A stretch of 17,400 nucleotides of DNA from an uncultured Verrucomicrobiales bacterium (GTDB lineage Bacteria > Verrucomicrobiota > Verrucomicrobiia > Verrucomicrobiales > DEV007): assembly GCA_938091905.1 (NCBI GenBank), contig CALKOM010000041.1, forward strand, positions 1 through 17,400. Direction: 5' to 3'. The notes under the pieces were generated by a model that had not been told where the DNA came from, did no database searches, and was given only the letters and a program-made list of their open reading frames with translations. The position numbers and the translations under genes are program-made. Position 1 is the first letter of the stretch. Each line of letters begins with the position of its first letter. Positions 2 to 15,850 of this stretch are shown here, in pieces.

Positions 2-1090
2 ATGGCCAAACCGATAGCAGACTATCGACCGGCCAATGAGGCGATCTATTCCAATCGAGTCACATTTGGTGTGCAATCGTTGGGCTTTCACAAGTCTGTG
101 TTCAATGAGGCGATGGCGATCGTTGAGTTCCACGATCGGTGCAGTATCCTTGAACGGGTCAAACCGAGCCATCTTAAGCGGAAGATCGGGGTGGGACGTC
201 CCGTCGTTGATGCCTCGTTTTATCGGGCGCTCTATGAGTCGAATTGCCTGCTCATCTGTCCGGCTGTGTGGAACTTCCAGGTGCGGCAAGATGGGGGTTA
301 TAACGACAATCTATCGTTCCTCAGTCCGTTCTTTCTCTATTCGGTAGGGAAGTCCGGTTCTGATAGCTATCTCATGAAGCCGATTCTGTATGCCGCGGCT
401 TCTTTCTCACCGGAACTGAAGACCAGGATGCTGCGTAGCGGCACTTATGTGCCGTCCCTGCTTGGGCTCTTCAAGGCACAATTGGGAGGCGGCGACCTTC
501 TCAGTGCGGCCGCGCATCCTTCAGCCTATACCCTGCCCGAGTCCGGGCCTTTTCTTGAGCTGCTGATTAACAAGGCTCATAAACTGAAGCACATCCCTCC
601 GGTGACGCGCGTGAGATGTGTAGGAGAGAAGCCTGATGATCTCGTCCTTGTGGAAGAGCGCTACCTGATTACCTCAGCGTTGCGGGAGGGGGAAGTGCTA
701 GAATTGGAGATCGATTTAAGTGATAGTTGGACGGATGTTGGACAGAAGTATTTAGCTGCCGAGGGCAAGATTCTGAGAGAACCCGACGGCACGGAAACCC
801 TTCAGGCCGACCTGAAGAAGCTTCTGGTGGAGTTCACGGAGCGGCATCCTCTGGTCGAGCAGACCCGAGCGCGTATCAAGAAGGCACAGAAGAAGCAGTC
901 GACGTTGGCAAAAGTTGCCGGGCACGAATCGCGCTGGAGACTTCGGGTGCCGTGGCAATCGATGTGCAACACGACCGGGCTCAAACGTACTGATGTTGTC
1001 TTTGTGGCGAACGATGGCGCTTACGATGGGGCACCTGCGTATGTTTCGGTGAGGCACCTGCAGCAATCGGATCGTTGGCTGCGAGAATGA
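2..1090 (+). CDS. Uncharacterised protein, probably 5'-truncated by the window edge
   Basis: 362-codon ORF starting at base 2 and ending at TGA 1088-1090, with protein-like composition and co-oriented with uppP. No family assignable by eye; the true start may lie upstream of the window. Confidence 0.75.
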   Translation: MAKPIADYRPANEAIYSNRVTFGVQSLGFHKSVFNEAMAIVEFHDRCSILERVKPSHLKRKIGVGRPVVDASFYRALYESNCLLICPAVWNFQVRQDGGYNDNLSFLSPFFLYSVGKSGSDSYLMKPILYAAASFSPELKTRMLRSGTYVPSLLGLFKAQLGGGDLLSAAAHPSAYTLPESGPFLELLINKAHKLKHIPPVTRVRCVGEKPDDLVLVEERYLITSALREGEVLELEIDLSDSWTDVGQKYLAAEGKILREPDGTETLQADLKKLLVEFTERHPLVEQTRARIKKAQKKQSTLAKVAGHESRWRLRVPWQSMCNTTGLKRTDVVFVANDGAYDGAPAYVSVRHLQQSDRWLRE

Positions 1091-5030: not shown

Positions 5031-5086
5031 GCTATTGAGAATCCGAAGGCTCGTCTGTGGTGTGCAACCCAAGTAAAACAGACGAA

Positions 5087-5403
5087 ATGAAACGAAAGAG
5101 AAGACACCTGACTCCTGAGTTCAAAGCGTGCATTGCGATCGAAGTCCTCCAGGGTATCAAGACAATCAACGAGATCGCTAAGGCCAATGAGCTAGCCCCA
5201 ACACAAGTGAGCCAGTGGAAGAAGGAACTGGAAGGGCGCGTGCCTGAGAGCTTTGCAGGTAAGAATCACGCCAAATCGGAACTGGCCCTCAAAGAGAAGC
5301 AGGAGCAGCGGTTGGAACGCAAAGTCGGTCAGCTCGTCATGGAGAAGGAGTTCCTTGAGAAAAGCGCTAGGAGCTGGGGATCGATCTCAGCGAAAAGCCA
5401 TGA
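5087..5403 (+). pseudogene. IS3 transposase OrfA (HTH), frameshifted near the C-terminus
   Basis: MKRKRRHLTPEFKACIAIE...TINEIAKANELAPTQVSQWKK is an HTH_Tnp_1-type domain followed by a zipper (LERKVGQLVMEKEFL). The likely original tail K-R-*-ELGIDLSEKP-TGA(5401-5403) lies in a shifted frame, implying a 1-nt loss in the A-run at 5360-5363 and a TAG at 5368. Confidence 0.85.
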
Positions 5404-6224
5404 TTGAAACTTAGCACTCCAAGCTTTCGATACGCCGGCAAAGCGCTCTCCTGGGAGTGAATCGCAACCGACTAACATCGAAGCCAACGCCGACCTCAGA
5501 GAAGGAGTTGAAGATGATGAAGCTTCTGGATGAACTCCACACGCGCTGGCTATTCTTGGGGCAGCGGAAGCTCATCCGAGAGCTTCGAGACCAAGGCATC
5601 GAGATAGGTCGAAAGCGACTACGTCGCCTCATGAGAACGATGGGCATTGAAGCCATTGCTCCGAAGCCCAAGCTCAGCGTTCCTGGCAAAGGCAACAAGA
5701 TCTATCCCTACCTCCTACGTGATCGGAAGGTCAGTGAGGTGGACGAGGTCTGGTGCACGGACATTACCTACATACCAATGGCAACCGGGCACGTCTATCT
5801 GATCGCGATCATGGACTGGCACAGTCGTGCTGTGTTGAGCTGGGAATTGAGCAACACTGGCGATACCGAGATGTGCTTGAGGGCTCTGGCGAAAGCGCTT
5901 CAAAGCGGGCGACGACCCAAGATCTTCAATACAGATCAAGGAAGCCAGTTTACGAGTAAAAAGTGGACCGAAGAGATCGAGTCCAATGGGATCAGGGTGA
6001 GCATGGACGGCAAGGGACGCTGGATGGACAACGTCTTCATCGAACGCCTGTGGCGAAGCCTGAAAGTTGAGAAGACGAGGCTATGGAGCTACGAAACCAT
6101 CCCCGAGTTGAAGGAGCATATTGATGAATAGATGGGCTACTACAACCACCAGCCAAAACATCAGCATCTGAACTACCAGACACCGTGGACGATCTACGGT
6201 TCTCAACCATGCCTAGCGGCATAA
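5400..6224 (+). pseudogene. IS3 transposase OrfB (DDE/rve integrase core) with two nonsense codons
   Basis: ATG 5400 overlaps the restored OrfA stop (ATGA) after an AAAAG motif. Reads MIET*HSKLSIRRQSALLGVNR...VWCTDITY...FNTDQGSQF...DNVFIERLWRSLK...HIDE*MGYYNHQPKHQHLNYQTP...TAA 6224; TAGs at 5412 and 6129. Confidence 0.9.
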
Positions 6225-6556: not shown

Positions 6557-8200
6557 CTAGAGAGAGACGCCGCGCTTCCATGGAATGAAGTCATCTTGGC
6601 TGAGGCGCTGCGCACAGGTTTGATAGTGCCCACTTGCCGTGTCGATGACCAATTGGAAAAGGTCGTTGGCGAGGGTGTCTAGAGATGCCTCACCTGCAAT
6701 GATCGAACCCGTGTCGAAGTCAATGATATCGCTGAGATTCTGAGCGATGGTTGTATTGCTAGAAATTTTGATCACGGGAGTGACGGGATTCCCTGTTGGA
6801 GTACCAAGACCAGTTGAGAAGATGATTAGATTGGCCCCGGCTCCGGCCATGGCGGTTGTCGATTCGACATCGTTGCCTGGTGAACACAGGAGATTCAGGC
6901 CTTGGTTAGTTGTCCAGCCCGGGTAGTCGAGGACATCATTGACTGGAGAGGAGCCGCCTTTACGTGCAGCTCCTGCTGATTTCATCGCATCCGTGATGAG
7001 GCCATCAGCGATGTTTCCGTGGGATGGATTCTGGTCGAAACCAGAGCCTACCTTTTGTGCCGCAGCTTGGTAGGCTGCCATCAGTTTGAGAAATCGCTGG
7101 GCAATTTCTGGTGTAGAGCAGCGGTCGACGAGGTCTTGCTCTGCCCCGCAGAGTTCGGGAAATTCTGAGAGAATAACGCGGCCGTGCAGTGCCGCAAGGC
7201 GATCAGAAACAAGGCCAATGACAGGATTTGCGGAGATGCCCGAGAAGCCATCAGATCCTCCACACTCCACGCCCAGAGCGAGTTTGCTCAATGGAGCTGG
7301 TTGGCGAGAGAGTTTGTTGGCGTCAGCCATGCCTTGAAAGGTCGCCTTGAGAGCTGACCCAATCATCTGTCGTTCGGATTGGCTCTTCTGTTGTTCGAAG
7401 AAATGGAGCGGTTTCGAAAACAGCGGATCTCGTTTGTGAATTTCTTCTCTCAATTGGTCGAGCTGTGTCTTCTGACAGCCCAAGCTGAGGATGGTGGCTC
7501 CAGCAACATTGGGATGGGCAATGTATCCTGCTAACAAACCTGCGAGTGAATCAGAGTCGTTATCGGTGCCGCCGCAGCCCAAGGTGTGTGCTAGGAATTT
7601 GACGCCATCAACATTGGGAAAGAGACGGTTCCTGGTGATATCCTGTGAATCTGGATCGATGTCTGCAAGGGGGACTCCCTTTGCGTGCCCCTGGGCGAGC
7701 TGTTGAACATAGGCCTCGTAGGGCCGCGTGATCCCATAGCCAAGCGGCCCTAATAGAGCCTCTTTCATCAGCATTAGATTGCGATTCTCACAGAAGACTA
7801 GCGGGATGACGAGCCACTGGTTCGCCGTGCCAACACTGCCATTTTCGCGATGGTAGCCGTCAAAGGTGGTGTCCATCCATTGGGACACATCGGGAGTGCT
7901 CCAAGGGCGTGCTTCCTCATTGATCTGAGGGGCTTGAACCGCGTGCGTGACATTGCTCGTGTGAATGCCATGACCACGGGGTATGGGCTTATCTGCTTTG
8001 CCCACGGTCAGCCCGTACATGGTGATCGTGTCTCCGGTGCCGAGATTCCAGTCGGTGAATTTGTGTTTGGATTTGATGGCTTCCCCGACGCTAATGGCAT
8101 GGTCATCTACAGTAACGGTCTCGCCTGCAGCGAGATCGCGAAGGGCAACAATGACATTGTCTTTGGGATTTACTCGGAGGGCCTTGATGGGTTCGGGCAT
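6557..8200 (-). CDS. uxaA: Altronate dehydratase (UxaA family; SAF domain plus GD_AH C-terminal domain)
   Basis: N-terminal SAF domain (P.DNVIVAL, HKF, YG..VG.A...I..G..IHTSNV); GCGG; LGVECGGSDGFSGISANP; NPSHGN...GLIT...KS.GA..KGG; FSTGLGTPTGNPV.PVIKISSN; C-terminal PWKRGVSL. Start at 8200 preferred because the ATG at 8218 falls inside the predicted promoter spacer. GarD-like specificity is not excluded. Confidence 0.9.
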   Translation of the reverse strand: MPEPIKALRVNPKDNVIVALRDLAAGETVTVDDHAISVGEAIKSKHKFTDWNLGTGDTITMYGLTVGKADKPIPRGHGIHTSNVTHAVQAPQINEEARPWSTPDVSQWMDTTFDGYHRENGSVGTANQWLVIPLVFCENRNLMLMKEALLGPLGYGITRPYEAYVQQLAQGHAKGVPLADIDPDSQDITRNRLFPNVDGVKFLAHTLGCGGTDNDSDSLAGLLAGYIAHPNVAGATILSLGCQKTQLDQLREEIHKRDPLFSKPLHFFEQQKSQSERQMIGSALKATFQGMADANKLSRQPAPLSKLALGVECGGSDGFSGISANPVIGLVSDRLAALHGRVILSEFPELCGAEQDLVDRCSTPEIAQRFLKLMAAYQAAAQKVGSGFDQNPSHGNIADGLITDAMKSAGAARKGGSSPVNDVLDYPGWTTNQGLNLLCSPGNDVESTTAMAGAGANLIIFSTGLGTPTGNPVTPVIKISSNTTIAQNLSDIIDFDTGSIIAGEASLDTLANDLFQLVIDTASGHYQTCAQRLSQDDFIPWKRGVSL

Positions 8201-8209
8201 GGTAGGCGT

Positions 8210-8238
8210 AGCATGCATTTGAAGGTCAGAGTCGACAA
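8210..8238 (-). promoter_or_regulatory. Putative sigma-70 promoter for uxaA, very short or no leader
   Basis: Minus strand: TTGTCG (8238-8233), 17 nt, CATGCT (8215-8210), then 9 nt to ATG 8200. Confidence 0.4.
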
Positions 8239-8271
8239 GCTGCTTCCTCTCAGGTAGGGCTGGGGGGACAA

Positions 8272-9207
8272 ATGAGCACGTTCTTTGCCAAACTGACTAA
8301 TTTATTTGCCCTTTGGGTCGTCATCGGCTCGGCTTGGGCTATTGCAGTGCCGGCCCATTTCATATGGTTTCGGCCGTGGATCCCTCTAGCCCTGGGTATC
8401 GTCATGTTAGGAATGGGGCTGACTTTGCGTTGGGAGGATTTCCGCGAGGTGTTTCGACAACCGGTGAGCGTAGTGATTGGTGTAGTCGCCCAGTTCGTGA
8501 TCATGCCATCGCTCGCCTTCGTCTTTGCCAAGGTGTTTCGGCTAGAGCCAGAATTTGCTTTGGGGCTCATTCTCGTGGGCTGTTGCCCCGGGGGAACGGC
8601 TTCCAATGTAATCGCCTTTCTCAGTGGAGCCAACGTGCCGCTTTCGGTGCTGATGACGATGTGTTCAACGCTCCTCTCGGTAGCACTCACGCCGCTCTTG
8701 GTCTTCTGGTTGGGTGGCTCGACGCTCGAGACGGAAGTGCTACCGATGATGAAAAGTATGGTGATGATCGTGCTTCTGCCAGTCATCGGCGGCATGGTCC
8801 TCAATTACCTGTTCCCAAAACTGATTGATCAGGTAGGGCGTACGTTTGCGCCGCTGGTCTCGGTTCTTGCTGTGACGATGATCGTGGCCTGCATTGTGGC
8901 CTTGAATTTGGACAAGCTGGCGGCGCACTGGAAGTCGCTTGTTCTTGTGATCGCGCTCTTTGATTTGTCTGGCTTCATCCTGGGCTATCTTGCTGCTCGT
9001 GCCCTACGGCAACCTGAGCGTTTCTGTCGCACGGTATCGATCGAGGTAGGGATGCAGAACTCAGGACTGGCCGTGGCTTTAGCAAACAAGCATTTCCCGG
9101 TTGGCGCGGTGTCGCTCCCCGGGGCGATCTGTGCGGTTTACCATTGCCTGCTGGGTAGTCTCATTGCCACGCTCTGGAGACGATTTCCGCCCCGGGATCA
9201 AGCTTGA
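8272..9207 (+). CDS. Bile acid:Na+ symporter (BASS/SBF) family transporter
   Basis: MLGMGLTL...DF; AQFVIMP; GLILVGCCPGGTASNV; IEVGMQNSGLA..LA are BASS signatures; about 9-10 TM helices; G-rich SD-like GGGGGGA upstream. Confidence 0.95.
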   Translation: MSTFFAKLTNLFALWVVIGSAWAIAVPAHFIWFRPWIPLALGIVMLGMGLTLRWEDFREVFRQPVSVVIGVVAQFVIMPSLAFVFAKVFRLEPEFALGLILVGCCPGGTASNVIAFLSGANVPLSVLMTMCSTLLSVALTPLLVFWLGGSTLETEVLPMMKSMVMIVLLPVIGGMVLNYLFPKLIDQVGRTFAPLVSVLAVTMIVACIVALNLDKLAAHWKSLVLVIALFDLSGFILGYLAARALRQPERFCRTVSIEVGMQNSGLAVALANKHFPVGAVSLPGAICAVYHCLLGSLIATLWRRFPPRDQA

Positions 9208-9227
9208 TTTGGGCACAACTTTCCGTT

Positions 9228-9256
9228 TTCACAGGGGACAGTCGCGTCTATACACT
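9228..9256 (+). promoter_or_regulatory. Putative sigma-70 promoter, likely leaderless, for the TPR-AAA operon
   Basis: TTCACA (9228-9233), 17 nt, TACACT (9251-9256), then 7 nt to ATG 9264. Confidence 0.55.
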
Positions 9257-9263
9257 GGATTCT

Positions 9264-10700
9264 ATGTCAGATATGGAGTCCTTGCGCCGCGCGCTCGCGG
9301 AGTCACCGGAGAATGTGCCTCTGCTGCAACTCTACGCCCAGGCGTGCGTGGAGGCTTTTTCGTTGTCGGAGGCGCGTGAAACCTTTGAACGGATTCTGAA
9401 CATTCAGCCTCACTCTTCAGAGGCCCGCCTGGGTGTCGCCAAGGTGCTTTATTTCGAAGGCAAGACTTCAGAGGCTGCGATCCGGGCAGAGACCTTGGTC
9501 AAAGAGAAGCCAGACTTTGCCCCAGCCTTTGTCTTTCTGAGCCGTCTCTATCTTAGTGAGAACAACAAGGCGCTGGCGGAGGATTTTTACGAGCGAGCGA
9601 TCGCCCTGAGCAAGCAAGTAGCGGATAGTGCGCTGGAGAAAGAGTTAGGCCTCAGTCGGGAACGCATGGAGAAGGTAGAGAATGAAAAGTCTGGGGATCA
9701 GCGTTACCTTTTCGGAAGTGAGTGGAAGGAAGAGGATCCTGATTCGCCTCCTGGTTCCGAAGATGATTACTTCTTCGACGATGATGACGACGAAGATCCC
9801 TTTAGCAATCCGCAGCGTGATTTTTCCCTAGCAGACTTCGAGAGACCAAAGGTGAGCTTTGCCGATGTCGGCGGCATGGAGGATCTCAAAGAAGAGATTC
9901 GCATGAAAGTGCTCTATCCGATGCAGAATCAAGAACTCTTCAAGGCCTATGGAAAGACGGTGGGAGGTGGCGTTCTGCTTTATGGACCTCCTGGTTGTGG
10001 CAAGACCCTGATTAGCCGTGCCGCTGCGGGTGAGATCGATGCAAACTTCTTCTCGCTTGGCCTACATCAGGTCTTGGACATGTACATTGGTAACAGCGAA
10101 AAGAATCTGCATCAGATTTTTCAATTAGCCCGAGAGAAAGCGCCGTCTGTCATCTTCTTTGATGAGGTGGACGCCCTTGCTGCTGATCGCAAAGACCTCA
10201 AGCAGAGTGCTGGGCGCACCTTGATCAATCAGTTCCTATCTGAAATGGATGGGACAGATTCAAATAATGAGGGTGTGCTCGTGATCGGGGCCACCAATGC
10301 ACCTTGGCACATTGATCCTGCTTTCCGTCGGCCTGGACGTTTTGATAGGATAATCTTTGTGCCGCCACCCGATGAGGTGGCTCGCGAATCAATTGTCCAG
10401 GTGATGGCGAAAGACAAACCGATCAATGATCTAGACGCACGCATGTTAGCAAAGAAGACGAAGCACTTCTCTGGAGCTGATCTCAAAGCGATCTTTGATC
10501 AGGGCGCAGAAGAAGCGCTCACCTTAGCGATGAAGGAGGGGCGCATCGTTCCAATGAATACCAAGGCCCTTGTGAAAGTAGCCAAGTCCATCGTCCCATC
10601 AAGCAAACCGTGGTTTGAGAGTGCAAAGAACTACGCCATGTATGCTAACCAGAGCGGGTTTTACGATGACGTGTTGAGCTTTCTCGGTATCAAGAAATGA
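9264..10700 (+). CDS. TPR-domain AAA+ ATPase (classical clade, single AAA module)
   Basis: About 3-4 N-terminal TPR-like repeats (ARETFERILNIQP, AEDFYERAIAL); acidic linker; VSFADVGGMEDLKEEI; Walker A GPPGCGKT; pore loop MYIG; Walker B VIFFDEVD; SRH ATNAPWHIDPAFRRPGRFD. ATG 9264 preferred over the TTG at 9204. Confidence 0.93.
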   Translation: MSDMESLRRALAESPENVPLLQLYAQACVEAFSLSEARETFERILNIQPHSSEARLGVAKVLYFEGKTSEAAIRAETLVKEKPDFAPAFVFLSRLYLSENNKALAEDFYERAIALSKQVADSALEKELGLSRERMEKVENEKSGDQRYLFGSEWKEEDPDSPPGSEDDYFFDDDDDEDPFSNPQRDFSLADFERPKVSFADVGGMEDLKEEIRMKVLYPMQNQELFKAYGKTVGGGVLLYGPPGCGKTLISRAAAGEIDANFFSLGLHQVLDMYIGNSEKNLHQIFQLAREKAPSVIFFDEVDALAADRKDLKQSAGRTLINQFLSEMDGTDSNNEGVLVIGATNAPWHIDPAFRRPGRFDRIIFVPPPDEVARESIVQVMAKDKPINDLDARMLAKKTKHFSGADLKAIFDQGAEEALTLAMKEGRIVPMNTKALVKVAKSIVPSSKPWFESAKNYAMYANQSGFYDDVLSFLGIKK

Positions 10701-11980
10701 GTTCGGTTCAGGGTCAGCAAGGTGATACAGGCGAGCCCGATGTCAGGCGCGCCGAGCATTTGGAACAAATCGGGCGAACGGAGGATGCTCTCAGTGCCTA
10801 TCGTGCTGCCTTGGCGATTGATCCAAAGAACGCCGACTTATTGCGTCGATTTGCTCACTGTCAAATGCGCTCGGAGAAAGAGGCTGAACATGCGTTAGGC
10901 ACGATTGATCAAGCGGTCGCTTTGGTGCCGAATGATCCCTACAATCACGTGGTGCGATCGTTAGTTCTTGCCGATCAGCGTAAGCCGAAACTGGCGGTGG
11001 CAGCAGCTGAAGAGGCAATCGCGCTTGAGCCTGAATTGTCTATTGGTCATACTGCACTGGCAAACGCCTACTTGAAACGCCAGTCTTGGCATGCGGCCGA
11101 GGTTTCAGCAAAGAAGGCACTTTCCTTGGACCCTGACGAAGAAATGTCGGCAAATATTCTGGCCCACGCGCTCTTTTGTCAGGGGAAGCAGGTTGAGAAC
11201 CAGGTACATATTTCAGGTTTACTCCATCAAGATCCCGAAGATCCCTACACACATTATGCTGCCGGATTAGCTGCCTTGCAGGCGGAGAAGTATCAGAAGG
11301 CGGAGGAGCACTTTTTGGAGGCGCTTCGACTGAATCCTAACTTTGATGCCGCTCGTGAGGGGTTGCTAAATGCCTTCCGGGCACGCTCCTTTGTCTATCG
11401 AAGCTATCTCCGCTACGCCTTCTTCATGACACGGCTGACGAGCGGTCAGCGCTATGGCCTGATCATCGGATTGCTCCTTGCAGTCCAGCTCCTTAAAGGT
11501 GCCTTCCGCAATGTGTCACCTGGCATTTCTACCGGCATAGGCGTGGTCTACATGCTCTTTGTGCTCTGGACATTTGTGGCGAGGTCGGTTGGCTCGCTTA
11601 TTGTGCTGGGTGATCATAAGGCACGCCGGGCGCTCCGTTTCATGGAGCGGTTGGATGCCGTTGTCGTTGGTGGTGGCGTGGTTGTTGGCCTTGTCTTGCT
11701 CTTGGCCGGATTTGTCCTGGGGCAATCACCACTGATCGCTCTGGGAGGAGGCTGCATATGCATGGCGGTTCCTGTGGTGATGGCACTAACGAATGAGCAC
11801 CCCAAAGGGAAATTTCTTTACGGCTTGCTCGGCCTGATCAATGTCATCGCGCTTTTGGCGATGGTCGTAGGTCTGGTCGTGCCGGGCCTTGATCTGATGG
11901 ACTCCGCTCGCACTGCAGGGTTTCTGACGTTGATTGTGACGACGTGGCTGGCTGTGTTTGGAGTTCTTTACCGCAACTAA
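10697..11980 (+). CDS. TPR-repeat protein with a C-terminal polytopic membrane domain
   Basis: About 6 TPR-like repeats (ALSAYRAALAIDP, AAEEAIALEP, AKKALSLDP, HFLEALRLNP) then about 6 hydrophobic segments; no signal peptide; ATGA overlap with the ATPase stop. Confidence 0.88.
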   Translation: MSSVQGQQGDTGEPDVRRAEHLEQIGRTEDALSAYRAALAIDPKNADLLRRFAHCQMRSEKEAEHALGTIDQAVALVPNDPYNHVVRSLVLADQRKPKLAVAAAEEAIALEPELSIGHTALANAYLKRQSWHAAEVSAKKALSLDPDEEMSANILAHALFCQGKQVENQVHISGLLHQDPEDPYTHYAAGLAALQAEKYQKAEEHFLEALRLNPNFDAAREGLLNAFRARSFVYRSYLRYAFFMTRLTSGQRYGLIIGLLLAVQLLKGAFRNVSPGISTGIGVVYMLFVLWTFVARSVGSLIVLGDHKARRALRFMERLDAVVVGGGVVVGLVLLLAGFVLGQSPLIALGGGCICMAVPVVMALTNEHPKGKFLYGLLGLINVIALLAMVVGLVVPGLDLMDSARTAGFLTLIVTTWLAVFGVLYRN

Positions 11981-11991
11981 TCGACGCAACG

Positions 11992-12939
11992 ATGGGGAAG
12001 ATACTTGTTCTTCGAGGTGGAGCCATTGGAGACTTTATCCTGACGGTTCCTGCGATCCGGCTGCTGGCGGAAGGTTTGCCTGAAGCTGAGTTGGAAGTGA
12101 TGGGCTACAGTCCTATCATTAGCCTGGCTGAAGCTTCTGGCTACGCTAAGAGGACGCGTTCGATCGAGTATGGTGCGCTTGCATCATTCTTTGCCAAGGG
12201 GGCCACGCTAAACGAGGGGCTCTGCGCTTACTTTGCTGAGTTTAGTGTGGTTGTCAGCTATCTCTACGATCCTGACGGGATCTTTCGTGAGAATCTTGAG
12301 CGCGCGGGGGTGCAGATGCTCATCGAGTGTTCTCATCGAGTGGCGAATGAAGGACCGCCTGCGGCTGAACAGCTCGCAAAACCGTTAGAGAGGCTCGCGC
12401 TTTTTCTTGAAAGGGATACAGCAAACCCCTTGTTGAAGATGCCTCTGCCGATCGTGGATGAAGCAAGAAGCTTTCTTGGTGACCACGCAGGTCCTATCAT
12501 CGCAGTACACCCGGGAAGTGGAAGCCCTTACAAGAATTGGGAGCTGGACAGATGGCGGGACGTTCTCCTCAGATTGTACGAAACTAATTCAACCAGACGA
12601 TTTCTCGTTTCCACGGGTGAAGCGGAGGAGGCTGCCGTCTCGAAGTTTCTTGAAAGTCTCGATGCATTAGACTTGCCCATTGTTCGGGCAAATCGTTTGC
12701 CCCTACCTGTGCTTGGGGCTGCGCTGTCACGCTGTCGGCTCTATCTCGGACACGATAGCGGTATTTCTCATCTGGCTGGTGCGGTGGGAGTGCCTAGCCT
12801 CGTTCTCTTTGGGCCGACAGAAGACTCTGTCTGGGCGCCACAACATGAGCATGTCCGAGTGCTAAAGCACCCTAGTGGTCTTCTCAATGAGATCACCGTG
12901 CACGACGTCGTCGCAGCAGCAGAAGCGAAGTTGAATTGA
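11992..12939 (+). CDS. Glycosyltransferase family 9 (ADP-heptose:LPS heptosyltransferase-like)
   Basis: KILVLRGGAIGDFILTVPAI; IAVHPGSGS..KNW; YLGHDSGISHLAGAVGVPSLVLFGPT....WAP are GT9 motifs. ATG lies 11 nt after the upstream stop. Confidence 0.93.
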   Translation: MGKILVLRGGAIGDFILTVPAIRLLAEGLPEAELEVMGYSPIISLAEASGYAKRTRSIEYGALASFFAKGATLNEGLCAYFAEFSVVVSYLYDPDGIFRENLERAGVQMLIECSHRVANEGPPAAEQLAKPLERLALFLERDTANPLLKMPLPIVDEARSFLGDHAGPIIAVHPGSGSPYKNWELDRWRDVLLRLYETNSTRRFLVSTGEAEEAAVSKFLESLDALDLPIVRANRLPLPVLGAALSRCRLYLGHDSGISHLAGAVGVPSLVLFGPTEDSVWAPQHEHVRVLKHPSGLLNEITVHDVVAAAEAKLN

Positions 12940-12944
12940 GAAGG

Positions 12945-15584
12945 CTACTTTGCTGCCGGTGCCTCTTCTTTCTTTTCAGTCTCTAACGACTCTTTGAATC
13001 GTGCGCGTAGGGTCTTTATATCGCTGTTGAGCTGCTTGAGTTGCGCCCGCAGGTCACTGACGTCTCCTCGGAGGCGATTGACTTCTGCTGGCATCGGAGG
13101 AGCTGCTTGTTTGCGCAATTGGTTGAGCGCATTCTGTGCTGCCTTGGCATCAGGAGACTCTTTGTCAGCCACCACGTAGGATTCTAGCAGAGGTGCCGCT
13201 TTCGCGTCTCCAAGAGCACCGAGTGCGCCCATGGCAGCGCGGGCAACATTGCGTTTCAAGTGATCGACGTGTTGCATGAGAAAGGTACGAACTTCGATCT
13301 TGGAATCCTCATTCCGAGCGAGATGGCCAAGGACGCCTAGCGCCGAAGCAAATCCGCGGCTGGTGAACTTGGCTTCTTCGGTTTCGAGAGCGCGCCTGAG
13401 CGGTTCCACAAAGGAGGGGTCATCTTGTGAACGCATGGCATCAATGGCCGCGCGGGTAATGGCGTGTCCATAGGAGTCGCTCTGAAGCAGCTCCAGGAGA
13501 TAGTTCATCAGCTCTGGCTTGGCATATTTACCGATGGCGCGGATGGCGCTTGTACGGATTTCTGGATTGCCTTCCTGATCGGCCACATTCTTGAGCGTAT
13601 TAAAGGCATCATCTGAGTAATACGATGTTAGGGCCTGGACAACGGCTTTGCGAACGCGAGCATCTGGTTGAGCGAGAGATGTTTGCAGAGCTGTAAACGC
13701 TTCATCATTGTGGATGCTCTGCAGACCTTGAGCCGCAGCGACACGGACGGCGAAGAAGGTGTCCTTATTGAGAGCAGCCTTCAGCTTTTCAACGTTTCTT
13801 TTGTCTGCGAGCTGCTTCGCGGCTTCGAGGCGCCCAATGGCATCGGTCTTATCCTCGATCTGAGCGATGAGTTGCTTCTCAGAGGGCTTGAAGTTAATCT
13901 TCGCAAGGACGGCTAGGTCAGGATCGATACGTACAATGTCAGGAGCTTTGGACAGGCCAACATAAAAATCTTCTCGATCTTGAGAGATGGTGATCGTTTC
14001 GTTGTGGACCTCGTCGCCTAGTTTGAAACGGATCTGAAGAGGGAATTCGAAGAGTGGACGTTTCTCATTCTTCATCTGATCCTGGGTGATGGTGAGCTTG
14101 GCTTGTTTGGCCAATTCGTCCCACCTGTAGTCGACCTTCAATGTTGGGTAGCCCGAAAGGTAGACCCATTGATCAAAGAACTGGGAGAGGGATCGGCCGC
14201 TCAGTTCTTCTAAGATTTCGACCAAGTCTTGGGTCACGACTGTCTTGTAGGCGTGCGTTTCAAGATACGTTTTCACGCACCGGCGAAACAAGTCTTCGCC
14301 AAGTTCGGTCCGTAGCATGTGAAGCACCCAGCCACCTTTCGGGTAGGCTCGGAAACTGAATTGTTCCATGGGTTCACCATAGCCCTTGTAGACGATCGGT
14401 ATGATATCTTTGTCATTCCGGAAGATGCCTTGAGCATTCCGATAGAGGCCATACTTGAAGAAATCCTCTCCTTGAGAGTGACGATCATAGAGAAGGGAAT
14501 AGTAGGTAGCAAAGCCCTCATTTAACCAGAGATGGCTCCAATCTCGACAGGTCACCAAGTCACCAAACCATTGGTGGGCTGCCTCATGTGCGTCCAGGGA
14601 GCGGCTACTCTTTAGATTCTCGATCTCATCTGGAAAGAGGGTGTCCACAGTGAGAGTCGTTAGGCTGGTGTTTTCCATGCCGCCAAACATGTAGTCGATC
14701 GCACAGACGTTGTAGTATTTGTCCCAAGGGTAGGGGACACCGATCTCGTCTTCGAAGTAGGCGAGGATTTTCTTCGTATCGAGAAAAGTATTCTTTGCGA
14801 GAGCTTTCTTGGAGGGAGGTACATACAGGGCGATTGGAATATCGCGATAGGTGTCTTCGAGCTTCTCAAAGTAGCCAGCGACCAGGGTGATGAGGTAGTT
14901 CACATGAACCTTGTCTTGCAGCCAATGGAATGTCTTGAGTTCTCCATTCGTTTTCTCCTCGACCAAACGCCCATTGGAGAGTGCAACCATATCGTTCGGC
15001 ACATGGCAGATGACTTCGGTCGTGAATTTCTCATTCGGATAGTCGTGGCTCGGAAACCAGTGCTGATGGTCTTGAGGCTCGCCTTGAGTCCAGAGTTGTT
15101 CGTCGCCCGGAGCGTAGCCCATTGCCGCTGAGCGGAAGAATAGGCCCTTCTTAGGCATGGCATTATATCGAATCACAACTTGGGCTTCGGTTGAGGTCGG
15201 AATTGGTTCCGTGAAAGTGATCTCGAGAAACTCGTCGGTCTGTTGATGAGCGGCGATCGCCTGCCCGCTTGTGATCTCGTGGATTTGCAAGCCCTTGGCG
15301 TTCAGACGCAGCTGGGATACGGGCGTTGCTATGGGTGAAAAGTTTAAAGTGGCGGTTCCCTCTAATTCTTGGGTATCGAAATCTGGCGTGATTTCTAGTT
15401 TTAGGTGGAGCATGTCGACAATACGGTCTGGGGCATACTGGTTCTTGGGAGAGGCTCCAGGTTTGGAGAGATCGTGGGCGGCCATGATCGCGCAGTGCGC
15501 GCAGTGATACTGCTCCTCTGCAGCTAGGGGGAGGAGCGTGGTCGCTAGGCTGGTCGCCCCAGCAAGTAATTGTCTGATTTCCAT
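12945..15584 (-). CDS. M1-family (PepN-like) aminopeptidase with signal peptide, HEAT repeats and C-terminal coiled coil
   Basis: GGMEN (GxMEN); HEAAHQWFGDLVT...WLNEGFATY (HExxH-x18-E); AYPKGGWVLHMLR; HEAT-like repeats (VRVAAAQGL, VRKAVVQAL, IRTSAIRAIG). Start ATG 15584 (MEIRQLLAGATSLATTLLPLAA). Confidence 0.93.
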   Translation of the reverse strand: MEIRQLLAGATSLATTLLPLAAEEQYHCAHCAIMAAHDLSKPGASPKNQYAPDRIVDMLHLKLEITPDFDTQELEGTATLNFSPIATPVSQLRLNAKGLQIHEITSGQAIAAHQQTDEFLEITFTEPIPTSTEAQVVIRYNAMPKKGLFFRSAAMGYAPGDEQLWTQGEPQDHQHWFPSHDYPNEKFTTEVICHVPNDMVALSNGRLVEEKTNGELKTFHWLQDKVHVNYLITLVAGYFEKLEDTYRDIPIALYVPPSKKALAKNTFLDTKKILAYFEDEIGVPYPWDKYYNVCAIDYMFGGMENTSLTTLTVDTLFPDEIENLKSSRSLDAHEAAHQWFGDLVTCRDWSHLWLNEGFATYYSLLYDRHSQGEDFFKYGLYRNAQGIFRNDKDIIPIVYKGYGEPMEQFSFRAYPKGGWVLHMLRTELGEDLFRRCVKTYLETHAYKTVVTQDLVEILEELSGRSLSQFFDQWVYLSGYPTLKVDYRWDELAKQAKLTITQDQMKNEKRPLFEFPLQIRFKLGDEVHNETITISQDREDFYVGLSKAPDIVRIDPDLAVLAKINFKPSEKQLIAQIEDKTDAIGRLEAAKQLADKRNVEKLKAALNKDTFFAVRVAAAQGLQSIHNDEAFTALQTSLAQPDARVRKAVVQALTSYYSDDAFNTLKNVADQEGNPEIRTSAIRAIGKYAKPELMNYLLELLQSDSYGHAITRAAIDAMRSQDDPSFVEPLRRALETEEAKFTSRGFASALGVLGHLARNEDSKIEVRTFLMQHVDHLKRNVARAAMGALGALGDAKAAPLLESYVVADKESPDAKAAQNALNQLRKQAAPPMPAEVNRLRGDVSDLRAQLKQLNSDIKTLRARFKESLETEKKEEAPAAK

Positions 15585-15726
15585 AGAATCTAGGTTTACT
15601 TCAAGAAGGTGGATCACCAAACGGCGAAAGCAACTGGCAATCAGGACGATACATGCCTGAGCAAGAAGCTGCAATCGGAGACCCAAGGACACTGATTTCT
15701 TCAATGGTACGTAATTTGTCGAGAGT

Positions 15727-15742
15727 TGGCACGGCCAATGCT
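15727..15742 (+). promoter_or_regulatory. Sigma-54 (RpoN) -24/-12 promoter of amt
   Basis: TGGCACG-GCCA-ATGCT matches the consensus TGGCACG-N4-TTGCW with one mismatch and exact GG-N10-GC spacing, 108 nt upstream of the amt ATG. Confidence 0.82.
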
Positions 15743-15850
15743 TCCCGTTGCAAGAACATCGCTTTGGTTCGATTCCTTGGTGGTGAGTCTCTAGCAAATA
15801 AACCAATTCATCTCCTTCTAACCACATTAACTAACAGTTGAACGTTCACT

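Follow-up and report, generated by a model that had tools for sequence, protein, structure and literature searches.

The window, the whole 17,400-nucleotide (nt) stretch of DNA analysed here, holds a pair of overlapping forward-strand genes, an AAA ATPase with a TPR head followed directly by a TPR protein with a polytopic membrane domain. The reading frames and their overlap are as the preliminary description of this DNA had them:

9264..10700, forward strand: gene 1, 478 amino acids; TPR domain plus a single classical AAA ATPase module, without a protease domain
10697..11980, forward strand: gene 2, 427 amino acids; TPR solenoid (probably cytoplasmic) plus a six-helix membrane domain
10697..10700, forward strand: ATGA start/stop overlap of genes 1 and 2, read directly in the sequence
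9228..9256, forward strand: weak sigma-70-like site, TTCACA-17-TACACT, 8 nt 5′ of the gene 1 start

The ATG at 9264 matches the N-termini of the orthologues in alignment A2; the mechanically called reading frame of gene 1 is longer and begins at TTG 9204. The pair had also been credited with a promoter-like element of its own. Such a site is present, but it is weak: it matches at 9 of 12 positions, and the RNA-library contig X5 (9169-9319) already has its start 5′ of the site. Sites of this quality number six in the 5-kb region 8100-13100, versus 2.2 ± 1.3 in shuffles. Contigs from metatranscriptome libraries of four studies match both genes at 99% or better, and one of them (X3, 10485-10776) spans the gene 1/gene 2 junction; these contigs are short and stand for presence in RNA libraries only, with DNA carry-over possible and the uncovered parts uninformative.

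Pfam, AlphaFold2 and motif analysis agree with the earlier view of gene 1 as a protease-less protein in which an acidic linker connects a TPR head to a single, intact classical AAA module. Its parts are:

9273..9686, forward strand: N-terminal TPR domain of gene 1, residues 4-141, about 3.5 repeats
9672..9830, forward strand: acidic, length-variable, disordered linker of gene 1, residues 137-189
9831..10538, forward strand: AAA module of gene 1 with its lid, residues 190-425
10560..10685, forward strand: C-terminal helices of gene 1, residues 433-474, three helices in the AlphaFold2 model, with an aromatic-rich motif

Pfam places TPR_19 at residues 5-59 (4.7e-14) and AAA (PF00004) at 237-367 (2.9e-42; 144.7 bits versus a cut-off of 21.2), with AAA_lid_3 also matched; the scan returned no peptidase domain, and gene 1 has no hydrophobic or transmembrane (TM) segment. 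When residues 1-139 were scanned alone at E ≤ 10, 17 of the 21 families matched were named TPR, the best being TPR_19 at 65 bits. The AlphaFold2 model has a mean pLDDT of 79.4, with values of 80-97 for the TPR helices at 4-141 and below 50 for the linker at 137-189, which is gap-rich and poorly conserved in alignment A2. The sequence motifs of the classical AAA clade (PF00004) are all found: Walker A (GPPGCGKT, 241-248), Walker B (DE, D300/E301), the sensor-1 Asn (N345), the arginines of the second region of homology (R356/R359) and pore loop 1 (M-Y-I-G, 273-276). These catalytic and pore motifs are intact and their residues invariant across the 39 aligned sequences of A2; the aromatic position of the pore loop is Y or W in orthologues and is followed by I, L or V and the invariant G276.

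Gene 2 likewise has the TPRs and about six TM helices ascribed to it, and it has no N-terminal hydrophobic segment. Its parts are:

10733..11386, forward strand: TPR domain of gene 2, residues 13-230, 13 helices, 6.5 repeats, pLDDT 88-98
11390..11431, forward strand: Arg/aromatic-rich junction helix of gene 2, residues 232-245, linking TPR domain and TM1
11441..11956, forward strand: six-TM domain of gene 2, residues 249-420, with no Pfam family

The AlphaFold2 model of the whole protein is confident (mean pLDDT 92.3, pTM 0.81), and Pfam matches are to TPR families only, within residues 17-230 (TPR_2, 1.7e-19; TPR_1, 6.3e-18). Around the junction helix, Y234 is invariant, and at least 90% of the rows of alignment A1 share R230, R235 and L238. 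Six long helices follow (249-270, 275-305, 315-341, 344-365, 369-394 and 401-420). Lys/Arg-rich loops lie on the TPR side of the model, and we therefore infer an N-in/C-in topology with the TPRs in the cytoplasm. The conserved residues of the TM domain, D306/R310/L313 after TM2 and an N-x4-G-R/K loop after TM4, fall in loops that this topology would place on the cytoplasmic side.

The six-TM domain stands apart from described families. Among 19 members scanned at E ≤ 10, single chance-level matches were seen and no Pfam family recurred; a PDB profile search gave one chance-level match (E 0.29), a protein atlas queried with residues 225-427 gave no usable match, and Foldseek against the PDB and a wide VIA-align search with the full-length model returned TPR proteins only. 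The domain may have a specific intramembrane activity. Its profile matches 2139 clusters at E ≤ 1e-3 and 1670 clusters (50% identity) at E ≤ 1e-10, and among the matches listed nearly all are about 405-436 residues long, with the six-TM domain at about 215-420.

Whether the pair is conserved across phyla had been left as a point to check, and both co-occurrence and adjacency were found. We searched 401 genomes of the phylum with an ATPase threshold of E ≤ 1e-60 and a six-TM profile threshold of E ≤ 1e-5: the same 23 genomes match both profiles and the other 378 match neither. In all 22 genomes other than that of the window, the ATPase gene is followed immediately by its partner in the same orientation, with a 4-nt overlap in 12 of the 22 orthologous pairs and gaps of -14 to +52 nt in the other 10. 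The same pair also occurs in Planctomycetota, Bacteroidota, Cyanobacteriota and Acidobacteriota. It is thus strongly supported that the two genes form a strictly co-occurring, adjacent and often translationally coupled unit across several phyla. Mere sharing of an operon, with no joint function of the two proteins, is extremely improbable given that presence and absence coincide perfectly in the 401 genomes, that adjacency is complete (22/22) and that the genes are paired again in other phyla among unrelated flanks.

A wider view comes from the best 80 loci, taken from species genomes of many phyla. At 58 of these, a TPR-partner reading frame starts between -53 and +79 nt from the ATPase stop; at two the partner lies about 310 nt downstream, at two it follows a small TM gene, at three the sequence ends within 261 nt of the ATPase stop, and 15 have no partner. 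An Actinomycetota branch has a homologous partner TPR domain on a different TM anchor: the TPR domains of the two clades align over 224 columns with an hhalign probability of 100 (E 3.3e-40), but no alignment is obtained for the TM parts, in which between 1 and 8 hydrophobic segments are predicted (2-5 in most). Homologous TPRs joined to differing TM parts agree with a membrane part that serves as a tether and with TPRs whose role is conserved. In two complete TPR-AAA relatives from Micrarchaeia, the ATPase has a hydrophobic segment of its own at the C-terminus. Among proteins of 749-2135 residues that carry the TM domain, no ATPase-partner fusion was seen, which is weak evidence.

The C-terminal helices of gene 1 bear a motif that reads NYAxYANQSGFYDDV in this clade. 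It is conserved in the 76 bacterial homologues with a readable C-terminus (80 loci), except L057; in L032-L035 and L057, which are second paralogues without a partner, it has diverged. We rejected this motif as a partner-binding element, because homologues without a detected partner keep it (for example, L091-L093, L098 and L102).

The distribution and surroundings of the pair bear on what it might do. With 23 of 401 genomes, its spread is patchy, which fits an accessory function no less well than a part in core quality control. Patchiness would also suit a conflict or defence module in which the TPRs would detect an invader or a stress signal and the ATPase would switch on or regulate the TM protein as a membrane-disrupting effector, in the style of abortive infection. 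Several observations point the same way: a quick ATPase tree (SH-aLRT) interleaves phyla, with Nonomuraea, Calothrix and Opitutaceae among Planctomycetota; copies sit on large Streptomyces plasmids, one of them next to transposases; an IS3 element lies about 3 kb upstream of the pair in the window; and the ATPase matches the defence models PADLOC IetA (119 bits) and NCBIfam IteA (NF042959, 103.8 bits). These two scores, however, are below those of generic AAA families, the latter is far under its cut-off of 510, and no IetS-like protease is encoded alongside, so that gene 1 does not belong with IetAS/IteA. More than one change in the ATPase tree is no proof of transfer, and the pair is single-copy; orthologues remain 45-61% identical across families of the phylum and give no hint of the fast turnover usual in defence genes. 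In the TM protein, moreover, the conserved parts would face the cytoplasm, and the flanks of 12 loci hold ordinary transport, metabolic or unassigned genes, the sole exception being a TIR-domain protein at L038. We consider a defence role quite improbable.

The same flanks give no third member of the system: 49 flanking proteins from the 12 loci share no common family, and clustering the flanks of 96 loci revealed local synteny only. Haem or cytochrome genes do lie near four of the 12 loci (SCO1/DUF420/cytochrome c at L036, a haem synthesis fusion at L038, HemS/ChuX at L040 and cytochrome bd at L045), and both proteins of the pair match the CcmH/CycH TPR model below threshold (30.3 and 34.6 bits versus a cut-off of 42), as might be expected of a dedicated assembly chaperone for one membrane complex, perhaps of the respiratory or cytochrome kind, comparable to Bcs1 or to TPR assembly factors such as Ycf3 and CcmI. 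None of these neighbours recurs, though, cross-matches between TPR families are common, and the TPRs of gene 2 would lie on the cytoplasmic side, unlike those of CcmI; such a chaperone is very unlikely.

The AAA module was compared with known ATPases by profile score and by structure. Over this region, gene 1 reaches 223.3 bits with the CDC48 model (TIGR01243; cut-off 802.65, model positions 446-676 only), 222 with PAN, 206.3 with FtsH (TIGR01241; cut-off 600) and 202.6 with p97 D2 for that domain; CdvC (NF041006) is lower than CDC48, PAN and FtsH, at 173.2 against a cut-off of 650. Structural alignment with VIA-align gives p97 D2 at Z 27.0 (rmsd 2.7, 262 aligned, 38% identity), then NVL (26.5), VAT (25.7), FtsH (24.8), Vps4 (24.5 and 23.7), Pex1/Pex6 (23.9), ATAD1 (22.4) and Msp1 (21.2). 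Gene 1 is nevertheless no member of the Cdc48/p97/VAT family, having one AAA module, a TPR head and a TIGR01243 score below cut-off; it lacks the TM segment and M41 peptidase of FtsH and the N-terminal TM anchor of Msp1/ATAD1.

Vps4 deserves separate consideration. In an ESCRT/Vps4-like remodelling system, the TPR-6TM protein would be a membrane-bound oligomer or scaffold and itself the substrate, disassembled or recycled by the ATPase, and would take the place that Snf7/ESCRT-III holds beside archaeal Vps4. The layout of gene 1 parallels that of Vps4, whose structures align over residues 197-466, and in one Micrarchaeia genome the best match to the CdvC model is its TPR-AAA protein, at 228 bits, although no protein in the Micrarchaeia genomes scores above the CdvC cut-off. 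Against this reading, the head is a genuine TPR domain of about 140 residues, residues 1-139 have no MIT match at E ≤ 10, and residues 415-478 match no Pfam family, Vps4_C included, at that threshold, although in structure the Vps4 chains can be aligned as far as residue 466. The structural alignments give 37-38% identity to p97 D2, VAT and FtsH versus 32-35% to Vps4, and there is no sign that the partner polymerises. With neither an MIT domain, a CdvC score at cut-off nor an ESCRT-III/CdvB partner, gene 1 falls short of Vps4/CdvC, and the Vps4 label is unsupported for an AAA module that scores best against Cdc48/p97 D2, PAN and FtsH; we regard remodelling of this kind as unlikely, though worth weighing.

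We favour, with a probability of roughly 0.55, the reading that the two genes encode a membrane-tethered, protease-less AAA unfoldase or remodeller with gene 2 as tether or adaptor. From the computed motif integrity, folds, topology logic, co-occurrence, adjacency and translational coupling, we infer hexamer formation, direct binding, contact surfaces, substrate and physiological role along the following lines. Gene 1 most likely assembles into one hexameric ring of the classical AAA type, which threads polypeptides by way of its aromatic pore loop. Gene 2 would reside in the inner membrane with its whole conserved surface, made up of the TPRs, the Arg-rich helix that joins them to the membrane domain and a pair of short loops, turned to the cytoplasm; it would tether the ATPase and probably serve as a substrate adaptor too. 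The targets of the machine may then be proteins embedded in the membrane or close to it, which it would extract, disassemble or recycle, with degradation, if any, left to separate proteases such as that of the FtsH-like gene on contig C147. The preliminary description had likewise proposed that the membrane protein recruits the ATPase for extraction or disassembly, with a possible part in envelope stress or defence. A more specific version, suggested by analogy and in our view distinctly unlikely, would make the pair a bacterial counterpart of the eukaryotic extractors of membrane proteins, Msp1 or Cdc48-Derlin, its six-TM domain receiving substrates within the membrane, or thinning the membrane, and passing mislocalised or damaged membrane proteins via the TPR solenoid to the unfoldase.

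ATP-driven removal of bacterial inner-membrane proteins is thought to be mainly the work of FtsH. If the intramembrane-receptor version were true, the pair would represent a widespread, previously unrecognised inner-membrane quality-control route beside FtsH. A Cdc48-D2-like motor is in any case strictly coupled with a predicted membrane tether in at least six bacterial phyla and, because the membrane domain of the partner spans 1670 clusters and has no Pfam family, the system is among the larger uncharacterised membrane-associated AAA systems. It is self-contained in two genes and occurs in the culturable genera Chitinophaga, Flavobacterium, Calothrix, Streptomyces and Prosthecobacter, so its role is open to ordinary genetics and biochemistry.

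Set beside known systems, the pair shares features with several. The D2 domain of Cdc48/p97/VAT is its best AAA match in both sequence and structure. In ERAD, Cdc48/p97 is recruited to membranes by Ubx2 and Derlin/Dfm1, and by analogy the pair would likewise comprise a threading unfoldase without a protease of its own, recruited to membranes by a separate polytopic protein; gene 1, however, would form one ring rather than two, has a TPR head in place of the double-psi-barrel N domain and works with no ubiquitin system. With Vps4/CdvC it has in common a helical N-domain, a flexible linker, a single AAA ring and C-terminal helices, as well as an adjacent partner gene (there ESCRT-III) and a predicted action at membranes, but the partner here is a TPR-6TM protein and not an ESCRT-III polymer. 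Msp1/ATAD1 and FtsH are also single-ring classical AAA proteins and act on membrane proteins from the cytoplasmic face; in them the TM anchor belongs to the ATPase chain, as does the M41 protease of FtsH, whereas here a distinct TPR protein is the predicted anchor and a protease is absent. Pex1/Pex6 docks on Pex15/Pex26, and the TPR receptor Pex5 acts in the same pathway. The likeness lies in an AAA unfoldase bound to a membrane protein, in a pathway that also uses TPR proteins, and may extend to the Pex5 TPR matches in the structure search with gene 2, but Pex1/Pex6 is a eukaryotic double-ring hetero-hexamer and serves as an analogy only.

Literature searches brought up no experimentally characterised system that matches the pair, as the preliminary description had supposed, but its architecture is not entirely new. 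The only description in print that we found is one sentence in a 2024 mSystems genome survey (PMC11237479), whose accessible text places a bacterial “VPS4-like” ATPase beside a “TPRs and 6TM” gene, regards the ATPase as Vps4-like and archaeal in origin, and gives one example accession (Table S3); the accessible part of an ESCRT survey (bioRxiv 10.1101/2024.02.06.579148) says nothing of a bacterial pair. Our locus agrees with that dyad as far as the sentence describes it, a classical AAA gene adjoining a gene for TPRs and six TM helices. In its accessible portion, the mSystems paper describes neither a TPR head for the ATPase nor counts or experiments, and its Vps4-like and archaeal-origin points are not borne out by the scores obtained here. 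The window thus holds no new kind of system but a clean, well-documented instance of one, and the counts given here firm up the published remark and correct its ‘Vps4-like’ label.

The preliminary description of a gene pair in the window, a TPR–AAA ATPase gene (gene 1) followed by an overlapping gene for a TPR protein with membrane segments (gene 2), is confirmed by the open reading frames, Pfam matches and AlphaFold2 models. The mechanical ORF list holds two plus-strand frames, 9204–10700 and 10697–11980. Within the first, the ATG at 9264 falls at the same place as the N-termini of 38 relatives in our ATPase alignment, and gene 1 is therefore taken to start there; the ATGA overlap described for the pair can be read directly from the sequence. 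The pair and its neighbours are as follows.

2–1090, plus strand: 362-aa ORF; no Pfam match; its sole, weak match (7.1e-5) is to an XrtA-system polysaccharide chain-length determinant model
5057–6131, plus strand: IS3-family element; 116-aa HTH ORF and 224-aa integrase-core ORF
8272–9207: bile-acid/sodium symporter family gene, upstream of gene 1
9264–10700, plus strand: gene 1, 478 aa
10697–11980, plus strand: gene 2, 427 aa
11993–12939, plus strand: family-9 glycosyltransferase, heptosyltransferase-like (PF01075, 2.8e-18), downstream of gene 2
12945–15827, minus strand: M1 aminopeptidase domain (PF01433, 8.4e-48) fused to C-terminal HEAT repeats (HEAT_2, 2.7e-25), 960 aa

The glycosyltransferase most likely starts at ATG 11993, 13 nt past the gene 2 stop, and not at GTG 11944 of the mechanical list. 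The IS3 ORFs, which cover positions 1–85 and 123–346 of the 369-position IS3 transposase model, probably reflect the two-frame organisation common in such elements, although the second ORF may lack its end.

In gene 1, Pfam places TPR families at residues 5–120 and an AAA domain at residues 237–367 (PF00004, 2.9e-42), plus its lid, and detects no protease domain, in agreement with the protease-less ATPase claimed earlier. The AAA module is intact, as was also claimed: Walker A, Walker B, sensor-1, both arginines and the M-Y-I-G pore loop are all present, and these motifs are invariant among the relatives except for the middle pore-loop residues. The AlphaFold2 model (mean pLDDT 79.4) shows a TPR head (4–141), a disordered acidic linker (137–189), the AAA module and three C-terminal helices. 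NCBIfam matches are confined to the AAA part and lie far under their cut-offs (CDC48, 223 bits; PAN, 222; FtsH, 206; CdvC, 173; Mpa, 148; IteA, 104), and the best single-domain match among PDB sequences is p97 D2 (202.6 bits). The same domain tops a structure search of 48,161 PDB representatives (Z 27.0, rmsd 2.7, 262 aligned residues, 38% identity), followed by NVL (26.5), VAT (25.7), Rix7 (25.6), FtsHi (24.9), FtsH (24.8), Vps4 (24.5), spastin (24.1) and Msp1 (21.2). As these are all classical-clade motors a few Z units apart, the predicted fold is that of a classical AAA unfoldase and nothing finer.

A 2024 genome survey in mSystems (PMC11237479) reports, in its accessible passages, a bacterial ‘VPS4-like’ ATPase beside a ‘TPRs and 6TM’ gene, which is probably the same module. 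The Vps4 label is not supported for gene 1 by our profiles and model, because neither MIT nor Vps4_C is detected by Pfam, CdvC is the lowest-scoring model among the main classical families, and structural-alignment identity to Vps4 is below that to p97 D2, VAT and FtsH. A Vps4-like motor that recycles a partner assembly is, in our estimate, rather unlikely.

Pfam matches in gene 2 are TPRs only, all inside residues 17–230. Its confident AlphaFold2 model (pLDDT 92.3, pTM 0.81) comprises 13 TPR helices, a junction helix (232–245) and six long helices between residues 249 and 420. The protein lacks a signal peptide, as the preliminary description held, and has no hydrophobic stretch near its N-terminus. 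Lys and Arg abound in the junction and in the loops that follow TM2 and TM4; the loop that follows TM5 is acidic. We therefore infer an N-in/C-in topology with just 4–8 residues exposed outside. Across 37 orthologues, conservation falls on the final TPR, the loops after TM2 (D306, R310 and L313) and TM4, and the junction helix, where Y234 is invariant; all of these would face the cytoplasm. The membrane domain matched no Pfam family (19 members, E ≤ 10) and no PDB sequence, and two structure searches with the full-length gene 2 model were filled by TPR matches. Among 1.84 billion representatives, its profile found 2139 clusters at E ≤ 1e-3, of which 1670 also pass E ≤ 1e-10, and nearly all clusters listed share one architecture of about 420 aa.

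Both genes are single-copy in their own genome. The ATPase (E ≤ 1e-60) occurs in 23 of 401 sampled Verrucomicrobiota genomes, the window's own included; the TM-domain profile (E ≤ 1e-5) finds the same 23 genomes, each time on the contig that carries the ATPase, and has no match in the remaining 378. In all 22 non-own genomes, the next same-strand gene after the best ATPase match encodes a TPR protein of 406–457 aa with 3–6 predicted TM segments, overlapping by 4 nt in 12 pairs and otherwise spaced by −14 to +52 nt. With the pair also found in further phyla, the predicted conservation of gene neighbourhood is borne out in full, and mere co-location of the two genes is highly improbable. One family (f3) has four second TPR–AAA paralogues (L032–L035, about 46% identity), and a Prosthecobacter MAG has another (L057; for this whole set, identity to gene 1 is about 46–47%); the TPR–TM partner does not follow them, their C-terminal motif is diverged and their tree branch is long (1.25).

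No third gene is conserved with the pair: 49 flanking proteins from 12 loci have no family in common, clustering the flanks of 96 loci gave local synteny only, and the glycosyltransferase was not seen in 12 other loci whose flanks were scanned. A chaperone dedicated to one assembly we consider very unlikely. Of 12 loci examined in other Verrucomicrobiota, 4 have haem or cytochrome genes within a few kilobases of the pair (SCO1/SenC together with DUF420 and a cytochrome c domain protein, L036; a HemC–methylase–HemD fusion, L038; HemS/ChuX, L040; cytochrome bd subunit I, L045), which may be chance because none recurs.

In four studies, with one metatranscriptome library from each, contigs match stretches of the two genes at ≥99%, spanning the intergenic region upstream of gene 1 (X5, 9169–9319), the gene junction (X3, 10485–10776) and the passage from gene 2 into the glycosyltransferase (X2, 11888–12051). 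As the contigs lack strand and transcript ends and the libraries may hold DNA, they give weak support for expression and no firm indication of where the operon ends. The promoter-like element proposed for the pair is present at 9228–9256, but matches at just 9 of 12 positions.

Scanning one genome per species gave at least 572 ATPase relatives. Among the best 80 loci, a partner-profile ORF begins −53 to +79 nt from the ATPase stop in 58 and about 310 nt downstream in L064 and L076; three loci break off at most 261 nt past the ATPase stop and 15 are without a partner. In L082 and L089, a 158-aa TM gene stands between the ATPase gene and that of a TPR protein with a single predicted TM segment. 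These two and L081, all Pseudomonadota, show a third layout of ATPase, 158–159-aa protein (3–4 predicted TM segments, no Pfam match; 4-nt overlap with the ATPase in two of three) and TPR protein (about 307–444 aa, 1–2 predicted TM segments). In L085 and L109, the TPR protein matches the six-TM profile only at positions 1–78. A six-TM partner (E ≤ 1e-20) directly follows the ATPase in 22 of the best 80 loci, or 24 with L064 and L076, across Verrucomicrobiota, Planctomycetota, Bacteroidota, Cyanobacteriota (Calothrix) and Acidobacteriota (Thermoanaerobaculia). Their ATPases form one clade in a quick tree (29 rows, SH-aLRT 99) that omits L053 (near-identical), L114 (cut by a contig end) and L122 (masked residues).

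A second clade (34 rows, 32 from Actinomycetota) has a shorter partner, whose TPR is homologous to that of gene 2 (hhalign probability 100, E 3.3e-40, 224 columns) and whose membrane part, with 1–8 predicted hydrophobic segments (2–5 in most), does not align to the six-TM part. One such pair (L133) lies on the 387-kb linear plasmid NZ_CP109276.1 of Streptomyces anthocyanicus (196468–198809), annotated merely as ‘ATP-binding protein’ and ‘tetratricopeptide repeat protein’ and adjoining IS630 and other transposase genes; of 16 plasmid records that gave a match, 8 are from Streptomyces. A conflict system is, in our view, an unlikely identity for the pair. Two complete Micrarchaeia TPR proteins with a single AAA module, relatives of gene 1, carry their own C-terminal hydrophobic segment (L129, 2326–4002, 559 aa, Kyte–Doolittle 1.73 at residues 539–557; L132, 2365–4104, 580 aa, 1.62 at 553–571) and, judged by sequence, may be tail-anchored forms that need no separate membrane partner.

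Over these clades, a conserved cytoplasmic TPR domain sits on interchangeable membrane anchors, which we read as the best argument that the partner's membrane part serves chiefly as a tether. Gene 1 would then be a membrane-tethered, protease-less AAA unfoldase and gene 2 its TPR–TM tether or adaptor, a reading to which we give a probability of about 0.55. The earlier remark that no characterised system was known with this architecture stands in that full-text literature searches brought up a single relevant paper, PMC11237479, and no experiments on the two genes, but the pairing itself was probably already in print: going by the accessible passages of that paper, the pair is one more member of a published module. 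Set against experimentally characterised systems, the pair appears as a variant on the theme of the membrane-recruited classical AAA motor, known here from sequence and models.
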